This document shows, piece by piece, positions 11,483 through 49,300 of a stretch of DNA of 64,000 nt. Source of the DNA: Dictyostelium discoideum (taxonomy: Eukaryota); contig CM000152.2 of assembly GCA_000004695.1 (NCBI GenBank), forward strand, positions 4,384,001 through 4,448,000. Reading direction: 5' to 3'. The translations under genes and the position numbers were made by a program. Each line of letters starts with the position of its first letter. The first letter of the stretch is position 1. The notes under the pieces were generated by a model. That model did no database searches, was not told where the DNA came from, and saw nothing but the letters and a program-made list of their open reading frames with translations.

Positions 11483-12292
11483 TTAAATAATTACAGTTAA
11501 ACCTGTATTTTTTATATTGTGCGTTTTCTGCAAAATGAAAATTAATATTGATAGTTGGATCTGGTTTAAATGCTTTGTTGTTTGTTTGTGGTTTATAAAG
11601 GGTGTGTATAATTTTGTTGTTTGGTTTTTTGTTAGTGACCAGTTTTTGTTTCCATTGCAATTTTTATATATAAAATATTTTAATTTGTCGTGGTTTATGA
11701 AGTTGATTGTGTGCTGACAATTGAAAAACAAATGACCATAGGGATCATTATTCATTTCATTGTTGCAAATGGGGCAAACTTTGTTGTGTAGATGATTAAT
11801 CGGAAGACATCTAGTAAAGAATCTTTGCATTGTATCCAGGCCTTTTGGATCTTTTAATTTTTGAATTTTGACAAATAGTTGGTCGTATGTGTATTTCCAT
11901 AATAGTTGTATTGATTGTTGGTGCGAAGTAAGAGGTAGATCTGAATATTTCTTTCCAATATAGTCTTTTGATTTGCATTGGTGATTGTTGAGTATTGTCG
12001 AGTAGATTTCTTTGAGTGTTGGTGGTAGTGAAATATTATTTGTGGTTAATATTTGAGAGGTTTGGTTTTTTGTTAATATTGGTTGTAGGGTTTGAACTTT
12101 ATCTTTTAGATGTCCAATTTGAGTTGCATAGTTTTCCCATTCTTTTTTGATTTTTATAAGGTATGGAGAAGAGATTGATTTGTTGATGATTTGATCCATC
12201 CAACTTATCATGTATATTGAATTGTTTGCAGATTTATGCATATCCAAATCTTTTGAGCAACTTGTAGTAATTGTATATTCCACATACCCCAA
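11483..12292 (-). CDS. Retroelement ORF2 C-terminal Cys/His-rich (zinc-finger-like) region
   Basis: 269-aa ORF ending in CPICNNEMNNDPYGHLFFNCQH (CxxC...HxxxxC pattern), typical of non-LTR ORF2 C-termini. Confidence 0.6.
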   Translation of the reverse strand: MGYVEYTITTSCSKDLDMHKSANNSIYMISWMDQIINKSISSPYLIKIKKEWENYATQIGHLKDKVQTLQPILTKNQTSQILTTNNISLPPTLKEIYSTILNNHQCKSKDYIGKKYSDLPLTSHQQSIQLLWKYTYDQLFVKIQKLKDPKGLDTMQRFFTRCLPINHLHNKVCPICNNEMNNDPYGHLFFNCQHTINFINHDKLKYFIYKNCNGNKNWSLTKNQTTKLYTPFINHKQTTKHLNQIQLSILIFILQKTHNIKNTGLTVII

Positions 12293-12599
12293 CCACCTTC
12301 TTTTAATGGTTTTAATGATCTATCATAACACATCAAAGGTAATTTTGCACGTGAATGGATGGTTGATGTGTTGTTTTCAATGGAATTGGTATTGAGAGTT
12401 GGTGATTCAGAATTTGCCGGAGAATTCATTAACCATGAGATTAATTTATTAATTTGAATTTCTTCATCTTTTGTAAATTCTTCAAGGTATGATAAATATG
12501 TTATTGGTGATAGTGAGTAGGTGTTTATGATGGTTGTTTTTGTTTTTAATGTTGTGCCACTAGTTTTCCATAGTACTAATGATTTATTCAGTGTTTTCA

Positions 12600-13865
12600 T
12601 TGTTTCTGGTAATTTCCTATGTAAACCATTATGATTAAAGAAATAGCCAAGGACTCTTTCTGATTGATATTTTTTGGTTATTGGTATTCTTTTTGATTGC
12701 GGAATGTTGTTTATTATGTGTTTATCTGTGATTTTGTGGGGGTTGATTTCTATTATTGCACTTTTGTCAAAATTTAATGATGATGATGTTGAAGCGCAGA
12801 AATTATCGAAATGTTTAATTGATTGTTGTTGTTGTTCGTAGTTGATGTTGTATGTTGCAAATTGGGTAAATTTGATTATAATTTGTGGATTGGGTGAAAT
12901 TGGTAATCCAATTATTGTATTGTCTGCATTTATTGTTCTTGCTAATATTTCAATTACAATTACAAATAAAGTGGCTGAGATTGGGTAACCTTGTTTTACA
13001 CCTCTTTTAATATCGAATTTTCTGGTCGTTTTACCATTAATTGAAATTTTTGCTTATGAGTCAGATAATAGCTTGTTGATTAAGTTTATTAATTTTATTG
13101 GTATACCAATATGAATTAATGTTCTTTTAATACTATGGTGAGAGATAGAATCAAATGCTTTAAAGTCAAATAGTGTGATGATATGAGGTTTTTAGATTTG
13201 AGGTAGTTGATTAATTCATTGATGTTGATGATGTTGTCTATGATGAATCTGTGGGGTACGAAACCAGTTTGGTTGTTGTTGATGATGAAAGGAAGTATTC
13301 TCAGAAGACGTGCATTGATTACTTTGGAGAGGATCTTGTAATCAGTGTTTAGAAGTGTAATAGGACGACGATTTGATATGAGTTAGGGGTTGCCTTTCTT
13401 GTATATTGTGTGTATAAGGCCTTCGGTGAATTCTGTTGTGATGTGGTGAGGGTTTTCTAGTATATCGTTGAATAATGTAGTGAAAATTGGTTTAACTTGG
13501 TTTAAATGATTAATGTAGAATGCATTTGTAACGCCATCTGGACCGAGTGATTTGTTGCAGCTTCAACTTCATCTTGTATAAATGGTGAGTCTAAACCATT
13601 CCAATATTCATTTTTTATGATGGGCCATGTGTTTAGCATGAGCTGGTGAGTAATTGGACAACATATTTGTAAGCTATATAGATTTGTGTAGAATTCAACA
13701 AAAGCATTTTCAATTTGGTCGGGGTCGGATGTAATGATGTTACCATATTGGATTGATTCAATTTTTGCATCTTTTGATCTTTTGTTTAGTATTGCTGATA
13801 GATACTTGCATCAATCCAAACATATTAAAAAAACATATTAGGTATTTCTCCATTTATATGTTTTT
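12600..13865 (-). pseudogene. Retroelement reverse-transcriptase region, disrupted by stop codons and frameshifts
   Basis: RT-like translation (...YLDDI-like blocks, LNKSLVLWKTSG...) can be followed on the minus strand. It is interrupted, for example by an in-frame stop near 13050 and by frame changes between the listed ORFs 12208..12600 and 13866..14942. Confidence 0.55.
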
Positions 13866-16355: not shown

Positions 16356-16426
16356 TGCGTATGCTGGGAATCGAACCCAGTTCGCATCCGTGGCAGGGAT
16401 GCATCATACCACTAGACCACATACGC
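16356..16426 (-). tRNA. tRNA-Gly (anticodon GCC), 71 nt
   Basis: Reverse complement folds as a canonical cloverleaf. Acceptor stem GCGTATG/CATACGC. Anticodon stem CATCC/GGATG with loop CTGCCAC. T-arm CTGGG-TTCGATT-CCCAG. Discriminator A. Identical to the copy at 29344..29414. Confidence 0.95.
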
Positions 16427-29343: not shown

Positions 29344-29414
29344 GCGTATGTGGTCTAGTGGTATGATGCATCCCTGCCACGGATGCGAACTGGGTTCGAT
29401 TCCCAGCATACGCA
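29344..29414 (+). tRNA. tRNA-Gly (anticodon GCC), 71 nt, identical to the copy at 16356..16426
   Basis: GCGTATG-TG-GTCTAGTGGTATGAT-GCATCCCTGCCACGGATGC-GAA-CTGGGTTCGATTCCCAG-CATACGC-A. Canonical cloverleaf, anticodon loop CT-GCC-AC. Confidence 0.95.
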
Positions 29415-29445
29415 CAAATTTTAAATGCCTGATTTATTAGATCAA

Positions 29446-38700: not shown

Positions 38701-39161
<461 letters not shown>

Positions 39162-39805
39162 ATTATAGTTTTTGTCTTTATTTAATTTTTTAATTTTTTA
39201 TTTGTTTTGTGTTTAGAAAAAAAAAAATAAATAAAAAATAAATCACATCCTTTGCAAAGGATATTTCTAATTTTTAGATTTTCATTTATTTTATTTTATG
39301 GTATGATCCACCCTCTTTTTGAAAAGAGGATTATTTAAACAGATATTTAACTCGAAATTTTAATCCCTTTACAATAATTTTCAAAAATAGTCTTTTATTG
39401 TGAAAATCTTTTTTTTTTTAGACTTTACTATTTTTTTTTCATTGAAAAAACGTATTCTTTTTGGTTCTTTTTTTTTTTTTTTTTTTGTTTTTTTTGTAAA
39501 ATAAGTTTTTGTTTTTTTTTTTTTTTTGTTTTTATTTTTTTTTTTATTTTTTTTTTTTATTTTTTTTTTTTATTAAAACTTGCTGTATTTGATAAATGAA
39601 TTATGACACTTTAGTTGGTGTGATTTTGTATACATTTTTTTTTTTTTTTTTTAAATGTATTTAATTTAATTATTTTTTTTATTTTTCATTATCTTTTTAC
39701 AATTTCAATCATGGACAGATAATAATTAAAAAAATAAATAAAAATAAAAAATTTCTTTTTTTAAATGTGTATTTTTTTTTTTTTTTTTAATATTATTATT
39801 ATTAT

Positions 39806-40200
39806 TTATTTTCCAGGATCATTTTCAGTGTTATTATATTGAGCGACAATAAAGTAAGACCACATAGCTTTATCACCTCTATGAAGGAAAGAATTGAATG
39901 GAGAATCGATTGAACCAGTGCGGTTGCCAATCTTGATATTCATCATCGATTTCATATACATATTTGTTGTTAAGACCCTGAAAATGAGCATTACTTTCAA
40001 ACAACCATCTTAAATTGGGTTGTTCTTAGAGTGAATATGCATCATCCAAAGCTACTAATACAGTAGCCTCCAGACGAATATTCTGTTTTGTAATTTGTGC
40101 CATGTTCTTCATTCCAACGCTGTAATATTCCTGGTGTATCTGTTGCAACATCATAACCAATTGCAACACACAATTATAATGGCAAATATAATTAGACAAG
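39806..40200 (-). pseudogene. Scrambled fragments of a BBE-like FAD-oxidase paralog (pseudogene debris) downstream of the intact gene
   Basis: 39806..39925 encodes RTGSIDSPFNSFLHRGDKAMWSYFIVAQYNNTENDP, near-identical to residues of the intact gene (about 120 bp, roughly 90% nt identity to 40820..40935). 40060..40200 encodes AIGYDVATDTPGILQRWNEEHGTNYK, which resembles the BBE C-terminal region. This piece lies upstream of the first, the reverse of their order in the protein. Stops and frameshifts between the pieces. Confidence 0.6.
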
Positions 40201-40610
40201 AACTGTTAGCATTACAAGAATATTATTAATAATTATCAAATTATTAAATTATTATAAAAATTAAATTAAAAAAATTAAAATTTAAAAAAAAAAAAAATTT
40301 TTTTTTTTTGATTACAAACACCCAACACCACAATACTCAACACCACAACTTTAAAACAATAAAATAATGTTTAAACATGTATATATAAAACCAAAATTGA
40401 CCTCTGAATCCACCTCTTCTTGCTGTTTTGATTTAACTCTTATTTAAAATGTTAAAATTTTATCTTTAGAAAAAAATTAAAATAAAAAAAAAAAAAATAT
40501 AAAAAAAAATAAAAAAAAAAAAATGGAAAAAGTGTTTAGAAAAAAAAAAAAATTAATTATTATTTAATAAAAGTATTATTTTAATTGTTTAATTTAATTA
40601 TTAAATTTAT

Positions 40611-42259
40611 TTATTTCTTTGGTAATTCAATTGATTGTGGATAATTAAAATAATTATTTGGATCATATTTTCCTTTAATTTCTTGAAGTTTTTTATAATT
40701 TGATTTGGTGACATAGAGTCCGGTTTGCCAATCTTCAAATTCATCATCTGGATAGTTATTATTTAATTTATCACCAATTGAAGAGAGTTTAGAGTTTACA
40801 AGTTTTCTAAGACCAGAGAATAATGGATCATTTTCAGTGTTATTATATTGAGCGACAATAGTGTATGACCACATAGCTTCATCACCTCTGTGAAGGAAAG
40901 AATTGAATGGAGAATCGATTGAACCAGTTCTATCTTGATTTTGTTTACCACCATGATAGAAAATAGCTTGATTAATATTTAACAATGTTTCTGGTTTAAC
41001 TAAAGAGGTTGAATTGATGATATTGGTGACGGCATATTTATAGAAATCGTTGATAGCCTTTGGTACATCGTTTTTAGATAATTTCTTAACGAATCTTCCT
41101 TTGGTGAATTGTCTTAATGGATTATTATCATAACTCATTGAGCTAATGACTTCCCAGAATGTTTTCTTTAAAGTTTGGATATCCATGGTGGTGACTTTAC
41201 CCAATGGTGTACAGGTTGGATTTGATGGTGGACAAAGGAAACCGGTTAACAATTTTCTGAATTCGAAATCGCCCTCTTCAAGTGGACCATTGTAAAAGAA
41301 TGTAATACTAGCGGATGGAGTCATATTTGCGGATTTCAAAGTTAATTGAGAATACATATTGGCATAGATATTTTCACGAGTTTGTTCAGTGGCAGAACGT
41401 ACATAAGAATCCAATAAGGCGAGAGCTTTATCTAAATTGACAATATCGAAACGAATGGTATTCTTGTAAAAGTATTGTGGAATTGGGTAAACTTTAATTT
41501 TGTAATCTACAACAACACCAAAACCACCACCACCAGAACCAGCCAATGCCCAATAGAGGTCACTATATTTATTCTTTGGATTGGCTTTAACAATTGAACC
41601 ATCTTCAAGTACAACGGTGAATTCTAATATGTTATCAGCCATATAACCATATTTACCACCAAAGTAATTTGATCCACCACCCAATACAACACCCATACCA
41701 ACAGTTGGACAACTACCAGCAGTTGTTGCCAATAATAATTTAGTTGTGGCATTATATAATTCAATAACTTGTACACCAGCTTGTACAACAACAGTTTGAG
41801 CTTCAACATCAATTTCAATACCTTTTAATGAACTTAAATCAATATTAACAGTTTTATTTAACATTGAAAATTGTGTTGCTGAATGACCACCTGATCTAAT
41901 TGATACCTAAAATTAAATTAATTTTTTAAAAAAAAAAAAAAAAACAAAAAAAAAAAAAATTAATTAATTAATTAATTGAATTTAAATTTTTAAAAAAATA
42001 ATAAAATGATTTTATAAAAAAAAAAAAAATAAAAACTTACACCTCTATTAATACTTTGTGCATATAAAATTGCATCACTAATTTCAGAAGCATTCGTTGG
42101 TTTAATATAACAGTATGCTCTATTATTCATTAATGGATTAATAAATCTATAATAATTTGGATTATTATAATCAACACATTGGACGGCTTGAGTTTTTGAA
42201 ATTTGATTAATAGTAATTAATACAAATGATAAAAATAATAAAATATTATTTAATTTCAT
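40611..42259 (-). CDS. Secreted FAD-linked oxidoreductase, berberine-bridge-enzyme-like (PCMH-type FAD-binding + BBE C-terminal domain), 2 exons: complement join(42041..42259, 40611..41906)
   Basis: Exon 1 has a signal peptide (MKLNNILLFLSFVLITINQISKTQA) and joins via GTAAGT/...TTTTAG. Exon 2 begins VSIRSGGHS (the FAD-binding RSGGH motif) and has a GSCPTVGMGVVLGGG glycine-rich loop. The C-terminus ...GKYDPNNYFNYPQSI matches the BBE-domain signature. In frame with ORF 40611..41864. Confidence 0.8.
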
Positions 42260-46323: not shown

Positions 46324-49300
46324 TATAATTTATAATATATTTTTATTTATAATTATTTATTAATATAATATATCTATTTATAATTATTTATTTATTTATT
46401 TATTTATTTTAAAAGGGTACAAAATTAAGAAATACAGAGTGGATTAATGGTGTTGTAATGTATACTGGTATTGATACAAAATTAATGCAAAATACAGAAA
46501 AAGTTAAAGAAAAGAAAAGTCATATTGAAGATTTGACTAATCATTTTATAATATTCATATTTTTTTTACAAATTTTATTATGTGGTGGTAGTGCAATTGC
46601 AAATGGTGTTTGGAGTACAAGTAATCACGATGTTTGGTATTTATTATTTACAGCAACTGGTATAGTGGAGGGTGGTAAATCATTTTTAACATTCTTGGTA
46701 CTCTATAATAATATTATACCAATTTCATTCTATGCTACAATTGAAGTGGTAAGATTCATTCAAACCTGCTTCATTAATAATGATGTTGAAATGTATCATG
46801 AAGAAACTGATACACCAGCACTTGTAAAAACTGCAAATTTAAATGAGGAATTAGGTCAAATTGAATATGTTTTCACTGATAAAACTGGTACTTTAACTCA
46901 AAATGCAATGACTTTTAAAAAATGTTCAATTGGTGGTTATGTTTATGGTGATAATTCAAGTACAAATACAAATAGTAACAATAATAATTATGATGATAGT
47001 AATGGTGGTGCAAGTGGTAGTGGTAATGGTAATGAAATTAGATCAAATGAAATGATGTCATTAGAAATACCAATTTCACCAACTTATCATACTGGTATTA
47101 CAAATTATGATTTAAATAATAATAATAATAATAATAATAGTAATAATGGTAATGGTAATGGTGCTGGTTCATCATCATCATCAAATTCAAATTCAAATTA
47201 TACAAAACAATTAATACCATTTGTTGATTTAAATGATGATAAATTATTAGAAGATTTACACGCAAAGAATGAACAATCAAGATTGATTGAAGAATTTTTC
47301 TATGTTTTATCAATTTGTCATAGTGTTATACCATTACAAGAGGATGGTAAAGTTAGTTATATTGCAACATCACCCGATGAGAATGCATTGGTATTTGCTG
47401 CTAAATCATTTGGATTCGAATTCATACACAAGACAACCAAAGCGGTCTATTTAAAAAAGAATGGTGTCGAAGATTTGAAATTTGAGTTATTGAATGTTTT
47501 AGACTTTTCATCGGAACGTAAGAGAATGAGTGTCATTGTCAAGACGCCAACTGGTAGGATCATGTTATATTGTAAAGGTGCGGATTCAGTGATCTTTGAT
47601 AAATTGGCACCCAATCAACCAAATGCCGATACTTCAATTACTCACATTCAAGATTTTGGTTACCAAGGTTTAAGAACACTTTGTGTGGCCTCCACTCAAT
47701 TGGATGAACGTGTCTATCAACAATGGGCACAACAATATCATGCGGCTTGTTCATTAACCATTGGTTTGGATGTACCTTCACAATTGGAGAAAGATAAAGA
47801 GATTGAACGTGTTGCTGAATTGATTGAAACCGATTTCCAATTGTTGGGTGTAACCGGTGTTGAAGATAAACTTCAAGAGGGTGTACCTGAAACCATTCAA
47901 TTACTAACTGAAGCCGGTATTAAAATGTGGATGTTGACTGGTGATGGTCAAGAGAATGCTATCAACATTGGTTATAGTTCAGGTTTAATGAATGAAAATT
48001 ATGAAATGATCATTATCAATGAACGTACAAAAGAGAATGCAATTCAAGAATTAAATAGACATGTTGGTGAACAAATTATACTTCAACAGGAGAATAATAA
48101 CAATAATAATGATGGTAATGATTCAAATAACAACAATGGTGGTGATGATGATGATGGATCAATTACAAGAAATGAAGAAAGAAATAAATTGGTATTGGTT
48201 ATTGATGGTGGTACATTAAAGTTTGTATTGGATGATGCAGTTGGTTTTACATTCCTTAGATTGGCTAAAATGTGTGATACTGTTATATGTTGTCGTGTTT
48301 CAGCACATCAAAAATCAAAGATTGTTAAATTGGTACGTAAAACATTTGCTCCAAAAACTTTGGCAATCGGTGATGGTGCCAATGATGTAATGATGATTCA
48401 ATGTGCTCATGTTGGTATTGGTATCAATGGAAAGGAGGGTAATCAAGCCATTTATGCAGCAGACTATTCAATCTCTCAATTTCAACATCTTGGTCGTTTA
48501 TTGATGGTGCATGGTCATCATAGTTATCGTAGAATGTCAAAACTCATTTGTTATATCTTTTATAAAAACATTGTACTATACTTTTGCCAATTTTTATTTG
48601 CCATTTTCTCTGGTTGGTCAGGTCAAACATTATTTGAAACTTATAATCTAACAGCCTACAGTGTAGTTTACACTCTCATACCATTGATCGTCTATTGTGT
48701 CTTGGAAAAGGATGTCAACGAGCGTACAATCTATCAACATCCTCAACTTTACAAAGAAGGTATTCAACATAAATATTTCAATCATTTCACTTTTCTACAA
48801 TGGATTGCCAATGGATTCTATCATGGTTTCGTGGCCTTCGCTTTGGTGTATTGTACAGTGGTAAAGAGTAATCCATTCACCAATGGTCAAACTCAAGAAC
48901 TTTACGCATTTGGTATCATTGTCTATAGTTGTGTCATGCTAATTGTCACCTTGAAATTGGCTTTGGAAACTCATCATTGGACTTGGATCAATCATTTGGC
49001 AATGTGGGGTAGTTTAGTGGTATTCTTCATTTGGAATGTAATTTATGCAACTATCAATACCACCGCCGTCGGTTCAAATGTTTACTACGCCATCTTCCAC
49101 ATTGGTGAATCGGCTCACTATTATCTACTCTTGGTTTTCGTACCAACTTTAGCCCTTTGGAGAGATTTCACTTGGAAATATGTTTATCGTACTTTCTTAC
49201 CTGATCAGTCTCATATCATTCAAGAAATTCAAAGAAAAAATAATAATAACGCTGCTAATAGCAAATTTAAAGATGATTTAGATATTAAATCTTATCGTCC

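Follow-up and report, generated by a model that had tools for sequence, protein, structure and literature searches.

Immediately downstream of DDB_G0281399, an intact gene for a flavin adenine dinucleotide (FAD)-linked oxidase of the BBE-like type in Dictyostelium discoideum AX4, the intergenic spacer contains a short patch of sequence derived from the oxidase gene itself. The patch and its surroundings were analyzed within 64,000 nucleotides (nt) of chromosome 3 (assembly GCA_000004695.1, contig CM000152.2, forward-strand positions 4,384,001 to 4,448,000; hereafter the window, whose numbering is used unless another locus is named). The window is extremely AT-rich, with islands of exon-like G+C content. 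The oxidase gene comprises the following features.

42041-42259, minus strand: exon 1 of DDB_G0281399, with a signal-peptide-like N terminus and the last residues SINRG.
41907-42040, minus strand: the sole intron, AT-rich, GTAAGT...AG, 134 nt, whose removal gives the annotated protein exactly.
40611-41906, minus strand: exon 2, including the stop codon, starting VSIRSGGHS and holding the rest of the FAD_binding_4 domain and the whole BBE domain.

Splicing yields a 1515-nt in-frame coding sequence for 504 amino acids (aa), and the product is an exact match to XP_640652.1 (D. discoideum AX4, "hypothetical protein," UniProt Q54U09). The FAD_binding_4 domain (PF01565) spans aa 50-181, starting in exon 1 (E = 3.5e-25; 88.8 bits), and the C-terminal BBE domain (PF08031) spans aa 457-500 (E = 8.8e-12; 45.3 bits), both above their Pfam gathering scores of 26.4 and 20.6 bits. 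An earlier note, made from the letters of this stretch, had described an intact secreted FAD-linked oxidase, and the intact gene and its family are borne out by the gene model, the protein match, and the two domains. On this architecture, DDB_G0281399 is a standard member of the BBE-like/VAO-type FAD-linked oxidases, with predicted flavin binding and oxidase activity.

Two pieces of this coding sequence recur in the spacer, on the same strand as their donors and 0.8-1.0 kb from them.

39816-39919, minus strand: fragment C, a copy of 40825-40928 (codons 399-435, TGSIDSPFNSFLHRGD(E>K)AMWSY(T>F)IVAQYNNTEND), identical at 99/104 nt.
39917-39947, minus strand: the B core, a copy of 40717-40748 (codons about 459-469, DDE[F/Y][E/Q]DWQT), recognized by alignment and shuffle tests.

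Fragment C is 95.2% identical to the parent gene in nucleotides (E = 2e-44) and 92% identical in protein (aa 398-434), and its alignment score of 89 compares with 10.0 +/- 1.1 for dinucleotide shuffles. The B core, which reads GATGATGAATATCAAGATTGGCAACCGCACT in coding orientation, agrees with its donor in 28 of 32 columns, with one gap, in AX4 and in 29 of 32 columns in two other D. discoideum strains (counted from the printed sequences); the donor encodes DDEFEDWQTGL, and the match includes DDEYQDWQ. For the flank containing the B core (39920-40019), the observed score was reached by 0 of 500 nucleotide shuffles and 0 of 150 protein shuffles. Along the coding (minus) strand, the B core precedes fragment C, the opposite of their arrangement in the gene. 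They share 3 nt, ACT (39917-39919), a trinucleotide present at both donor sites (...CCGGACT/CTATG and ...GATAGAACT/GGTTC), and they stand in different reading frames, with a frame shift at the junction in all three strains.

Several claims of the earlier note bear on these pieces. Its first fragment, placed at 39806-39925 with about 90% identity, proves to be the stronger match at 39816-39919 described above. Its statement that the fragments are inverted in order relative to the protein holds for the B core and fragment C and fails for the second fragment it had named, 40060-40200, which is not BBE-like. The stop codons that it had placed between the fragments do not separate the real pieces, which abut directly with a frame shift and the 3-nt overlap. 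As to whether splicing could join them, no complete in-frame paralog can be assembled: the pieces abut without room for an intron, are non-collinear and in different frames, and amount to ~135 of the 1515 coding nt, about 91-95% identical to the parent. Hallmarks of a processed pseudogene are likewise missing from the patch, in which the copy stops within the coding sequence (codon 435) and runs into (AAT)n rather than poly(A), and no flanking direct repeats were seen. Neither piece extends across the position of the gene's only intron. A tblastn search with the oxidase across the 64-kb window and the downstream flanks returned no BBE remnant beyond the two pieces. Weak matches at 48200-48362 and elsewhere were set aside as chance similarities (E > 1, inside other genes). 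The stretch 39816-39947 is best described as a dead, chimeric scrap of DDB_G0281399 in a rearrangement-prone intergenic region, and the BBE-derived sequence is very likely non-functional debris.

The history of the patch can be followed across eight related loci: those of D. firmibasis (L001), two further D. discoideum strains (L002 and L005), the AX4 chromosome-1 paralog (L003), D. citrinum (L004), D. dimigraforme (L006), and D. cf. discoideum (L007 and L008). Syntenic orthologs of DDB_G0281399, each with a P-type flippase gene upstream, occur in D. firmibasis, D. citrinum, D. dimigraforme, the two D. cf. discoideum assemblies, and the two further D. discoideum strains. The patch lies 3' of the gene in AX4, in L002 (same orientation), and in L005 (inverted), and it is absent downstream of the gene in L001, L003, L004, L006, L007, and L008. 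Neither a tandem BBE paralog nor a further BBE remnant was found downstream of the gene at any of the eight loci. The presence of the patch in three independent assemblies rules out an assembly artifact as its origin.

Over 102-104 sites, the AX4 and L002 copies of fragment C show 4-6 differences from the genes of D. discoideum and D. cf. discoideum, 8-11 from the gene of D. citrinum, 15-16 from that of D. firmibasis, and 17-20 from that of D. dimigraforme. The differences are fewest to the D. discoideum and D. cf. discoideum genes, and therefore the donor was a gene of the D. discoideum lineage. Four of the differences from the intact gene are common to all three strains, indicating that the copy predates the split of the strains and that no homogenization by gene conversion has occurred since. 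The same 104 nt are identical in the intact genes of these strains. The patch itself varies among them in three places: the junction has an insertion or deletion (indel) of 1 nt, the B region has one of 3 nt, and fragment C has a deletion of 11 nt. These frame-breaking indels show the patch to be, as far as sequence can tell, free of coding constraint.

The patch probably goes back to one template-switch or filler event, mediated by microhomology, in which two nearby pieces were copied, a reading to which we assign a probability of roughly 0.55. Two 3' coding pieces, one of 31-32 nt (codons about 459-469) and the other of 104 nt (codons 399-435), would have been copied to a same-strand site 0.8-1.0 kb downstream and linked there in reversed order through the microhomology ACT. 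The copying would have taken place in an ancestor of D. discoideum proper, after its split from D. citrinum, D. firmibasis, and D. dimigraforme. Most economically, it would have required one repair event, at a double-strand break or in replication, with template switching, whether as filler DNA, as microhomology-mediated break-induced replication or fork stalling and template switching (MMBIR/FoSTeS), or as alternative end joining with templated insertion. Thereafter the patch would have drifted neutrally, acquiring frame-breaking indels that differ among strains and, in one strain, an inversion, with no role as protein. The homology, order, junction, taxonomic distribution, lack of open reading frame (ORF) conservation, and annotation are direct observations at the locus; the repair mechanism and the neutrality we infer. 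This reading is favored because the patch consists of ~135 nt at 91-95% identity, because nothing larger is found in relatives, and because the spacer has another junction of templated appearance. The whole would amount to ordinary gene scrap in a rearrangement-prone spacer, implying no new biology.

Several points weigh against this reading. A 3-nt microhomology is weak evidence for any specific mechanism. The sister lineages without the patch differ there by larger indels, no clean empty site having been seen, and without such a site an insertion is indistinguishable from the residue of something bigger. The lack of function is argued from sequence evolution. Finally, the segment next to the B core aligns, non-significantly, to the part of the gene lying between fragment C and the B core, as a tandem-duplication junction would leave.

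39948-40019, minus strand: a 72-nt stretch upstream of the B core, common to all three D. discoideum strains.

This stretch is collinear by eye with the aa 430-458 segment of the gene, and the similarity is not above chance: the observed score was reached by 287 of 300 shuffles at the protein level and by 151 of 300 at the nucleotide level. On that ground the stretch was rejected as an older BBE remnant.

The corresponding alternative is that a complete tandem duplicate of the oxidase gene, or two of them, once lay downstream and that deletions and rearrangements left ~135-200 bp, the joint between the B core and fragment C being either an internal tandem-duplication joint or the place where two copies met head to tail. 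A wrong-order joint, with the 3' piece first and the 5' piece second, is what marks a tandem-duplication junction, yet no larger remnant or tandem paralog occurs at any related locus examined. The many deletions and the inversion in the region suit a decaying duplicate, as do the weak alignment of 39948-40019 to the expected inter-piece segment and the evident proneness of the gene to duplication (there is a 99%-identical copy on chromosome 1); the supposed extra fragment at 40060-40200 is not BBE-like. The ~95% identity of the survivors means that the missing ~1.4 kb was not lost by substitution, so that several exact deletions would have been needed. We regard this alternative as a serious rival, though less likely than the template switch. 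The earlier note had proposed a decaying and rearranged tandem duplicate, and what stands of that proposal is non-functional, rearranged, gene-derived debris that cannot be spliced; the full duplicate is unproven, with no fuller copy at the eight loci. Like a decayed duplicate, the patch derives from the parent beyond chance and carries disabling lesions, but it does not cover the parent collinearly or substantially, and its relatives hold no fuller copy.

The template-switch reading concerns the B core and fragment C. Upstream of them, beyond the 72-nt stretch, lies a further block with exon-like composition.

40020-40207, minus strand: fragment A, a 188-bp block with a 43-aa ORF, absent exactly here in L002 and L005.

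The interval 40060-40200, which the earlier note had likened to the BBE C-terminal region, bears no such resemblance. It has no Pfam match at E <= 1, and a hidden Markov model built from 49 members of the oxidase family, run with filters off, found no match in the frame of the 43-aa ORF. Its nucleotide score against the gene is 9, below the shuffle mean of 10.5 and reached by 497 of 500 shuffles, and in protein comparisons with members of the BBE family its best score is 38, against 34.7 +/- 3.4 for shuffles, 32 of 150 of which reached it. The G+C content of fragment A is nonetheless 0.34-0.39 (exon-like), against 0.05-0.25 for most of the nearby spacer, and G+C varies with a three-base periodicity of 0.39/0.44/0.23 in the frame of the 43-aa ORF. 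By composition and periodicity, then, fragment A looks like former coding DNA.

L002 and L005, which lack fragment A, share the same junction (...GTAATGCT/CCCAAT...). No donor was found by blastn and tblastx in the whole window and the eight related loci, nor did a six-frame concatenated query of 5.8 billion proteins give a match at E <= 10, and fragment A has no Rfam match. A phmmer search of the 43-aa ORF against 1.84 billion representatives returned only three tandem-repeat proteins, in each of which the score accumulates over 8-9 weak stretches; these matches were judged spurious. We regard fragment A as a separate, strain-specific indel of DNA that looks formerly coding and is not BBE-related. 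No outgroup retains the segment, so the comparison does not polarize an insertion in the AX4 lineage against a deletion in the L002/L005 lineage.

This ambiguity, together with the exon-like G+C content and codon-like periodicity of fragment A and its direct contact with the BBE-derived part, leaves some room for reading the whole G+C-rich island at 39806-40207 as one patchwork insertion of BBE pieces and unrelated coding DNA, from which fragment A was later deleted in the L002/L005 lineage. Neither the window, the eight loci, the 5.8 billion proteins, nor Rfam supplies a donor for fragment A, however, and the identical junction in the two strains lacking it fits an insertion in the AX4 lineage equally well. 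We consider a single patchwork insertion improbable.

The oxidase-derived patch coincides with an annotated gene in AX4.

39806-39961, minus strand: DDB_G0281397 (XP_640651.1, Q54U10), 51 aa, MYMKSMMNIKIGNRTGSIDSPFNSFLHRGDKAMWSYFIVAQYNNTENDPGK, an exact match to the annotated protein.

The ORF of DDB_G0281397 runs through the B core out of frame and then through fragment C in frame, which is possible only through a 1-nt deletion specific to AX4 at the junction. Translation from this ATG gives 51 aa in AX4 and 29 aa in L002, and in L005 it gives 44 aa of unrelated sequence. Neither the 51-aa product nor the fragment ORFs have a Pfam family at E <= 1, and of the oxidase only 37 inter-domain residues are kept. 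In L002, a 158-aa gene model (12290-12913) covers both the patch and an (AAT)n tract; in our own translation it starts in the frame of the B core and has fragment C out of frame. Searches of the literature by gene identifiers and UniProt accessions found no mention of DDB_G0281397 or its neighbor genes. DDB_G0281397 is best regarded as an accidental ORF produced by the AX4-specific 1-nt deletion, and the practical consequence for annotation is that this entry (Q54U10), listed as an uncharacterized protein in NCBI and UniProt, is best treated as a pseudogene fragment.

It could instead be a real young gene, either encoding a 51-aa peptide that reuses 37 oxidase residues or giving rise to a regulatory RNA (a source of antisense RNA or small interfering RNA) acting on the parent gene. 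It is annotated in AX4, and a gene model has also been called over the homologous stretch of L002, but that model starts in the B frame and reads fragment C out of frame. The inverted orientation of the L005 patch relative to the parent gene would allow a read-through transcript to form a hairpin. The ORF is nevertheless confined to AX4 by the 1-nt deletion, with other strains giving unrelated short ORFs; frame-breaking indels and a rearrangement breakpoint fall inside the patch; and the product has no Pfam family, no FAD-binding domain, and no mention in the searchable literature. We judge this reading highly improbable. Still, were DDB_G0281397 a newborn AX4 gene, in which a 1-nt deletion fused start codons from out-of-frame scrap to 37 oxidase residues and the product acquired a function (a chance we consider very small), the product or the parent-homologous RNA might modulate DDB_G0281399 or its paralog DDB_G0267624, and the direct and inverted orientations of the patch among strains would constitute a natural experiment.

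The spacer has been rearranged in several further ways. Comparing L005 (7018-7275) with L002 (12230-12496), L005 has an inversion of ~260 bp containing the patch and a deletion of 190 bp. The right breakpoint of the inversion lies inside fragment C, leaving its last ~20 nt in the original orientation, and the left breakpoint cuts a 124-aa ORF (ORF124). The L005 inversion is the derived state. ORF124, which belongs to no Pfam family, is intact in L002 (11802-12176, minus strand), where it lies on the opposite strand between the oxidase gene and the patch. L005 and the chromosome-1 copy have truncated versions, stops interrupt it in L008, and AX4 chromosome 3 lacks it completely (window ~40310-40330), a distribution from which ORF124 is read as a presence/absence polymorphic or dying gene. 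Two features in AX4 adjoin the site of its loss.

40310-40329, minus strand: an AX4-specific junction at the ORF124 loss, 20 nt (GGTGTTGGGTGTTTGTAATC), a near-copy of the adjacent 17 nt at 40330-40346 (GTGGTGTTGAGTATTGT).
40330-40610, minus strand: the 3' flank common to DDB_G0281399 and the chromosome-1 paralog locus (DDB_G0267624), with 98% identity.

The near-duplicate at 40310-40329 looks like templated filler at a repair joint. The chromosome-1 paralog, DDB_G0267624, is identical to DDB_G0281399 at 497/504 aa, and the duplicated unit corresponds to window 42574-40330 (L003 4631-6921), comprising the oxidase gene with ~300 bp upstream and ~280 bp downstream. The unit stops inside ORF124 and does not include the patch. 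Since that ORF is now missing from AX4 chromosome 3, the duplication is older than its loss there. In addition, L008 lacks 1.7 kb in this spacer, and the (AAT)n tract that follows fragment C is ~250 bp long in L002 (12500-12760), as opposed to a few units in AX4 (window 39790-39815). With a patchwork copy, an inversion, a gene loss, and a 188-bp indel across three strains, the spacer illustrates the fast rearrangement of AT-rich Dictyostelium spacers and is suited to studies of repair signatures in social amoebae.

D. citrinum has in the corresponding slot, 3' of its oxidase ortholog, a gene for a 544-aa FMO-like monooxygenase (L004 6764-8552), of which there is no trace in the window or at the other loci. 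Fragment A was considered as a relic of this gene or of ORF124 and shows no similarity to either. On the far side of the patch, two perfect short palindromes at 39246-39261 and 39312-39329 (ATCCTTTGCAAAGGAT; CCTCTTTT-TGAA-AAGAGG) lie upstream of the next minus-strand ORF (38701-39114), and a nearby block at 39337-39483 aligns to D. citrinum, D. dimigraforme, and D. cf. discoideum; this area may be a promoter region. The window also contains two tRNA-Gly(GCC) genes, at 16356-16426 (minus strand) and 29344-29415 (plus strand). In Dictyostelium, tRNA genes are known targets of TRE retroelements.

The patch can be set against four known systems. With the BBE-like/VAO-type oxidases, defined by FAD_binding_4 and BBE domains, it has in common the 34 of 37 residues of the parent's substrate-domain segment that fragment C retains; unlike them, it is a scrap with neither the FAD-binding nor the BBE domain and so cannot be an oxidase. 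It resembles fragmentary unprocessed pseudogenes found beside their parents in being adjacent, highly identical, and on the same strand, with most of the coding sequence missing, the frame disrupted, and apparently no coding constraint, but it differs in consisting of only two tiny, non-collinear pieces, with no larger copy in relatives, and it may never have been a whole-gene duplicate. Like spurious or proto-gene ORFs in pseudogene debris, DDB_G0281397 owes its reading frame to a lineage-specific frameshift that joins ATG codons to a leftover in-frame segment, and a pipeline called it a gene, although it would be at best a candidate proto-gene. The fourth parallel is with templated insertions and template switching (MMBIR/FoSTeS and alternative end joining). 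Although the mechanism here is argued from one 3-nt junction, the patch has the form of such events, consisting of short copies from less than 1 kb away, set out of order and joined at a few bases of microhomology, and the region contains other complex indel junctions, one of them with a near-copy of the adjacent sequence.

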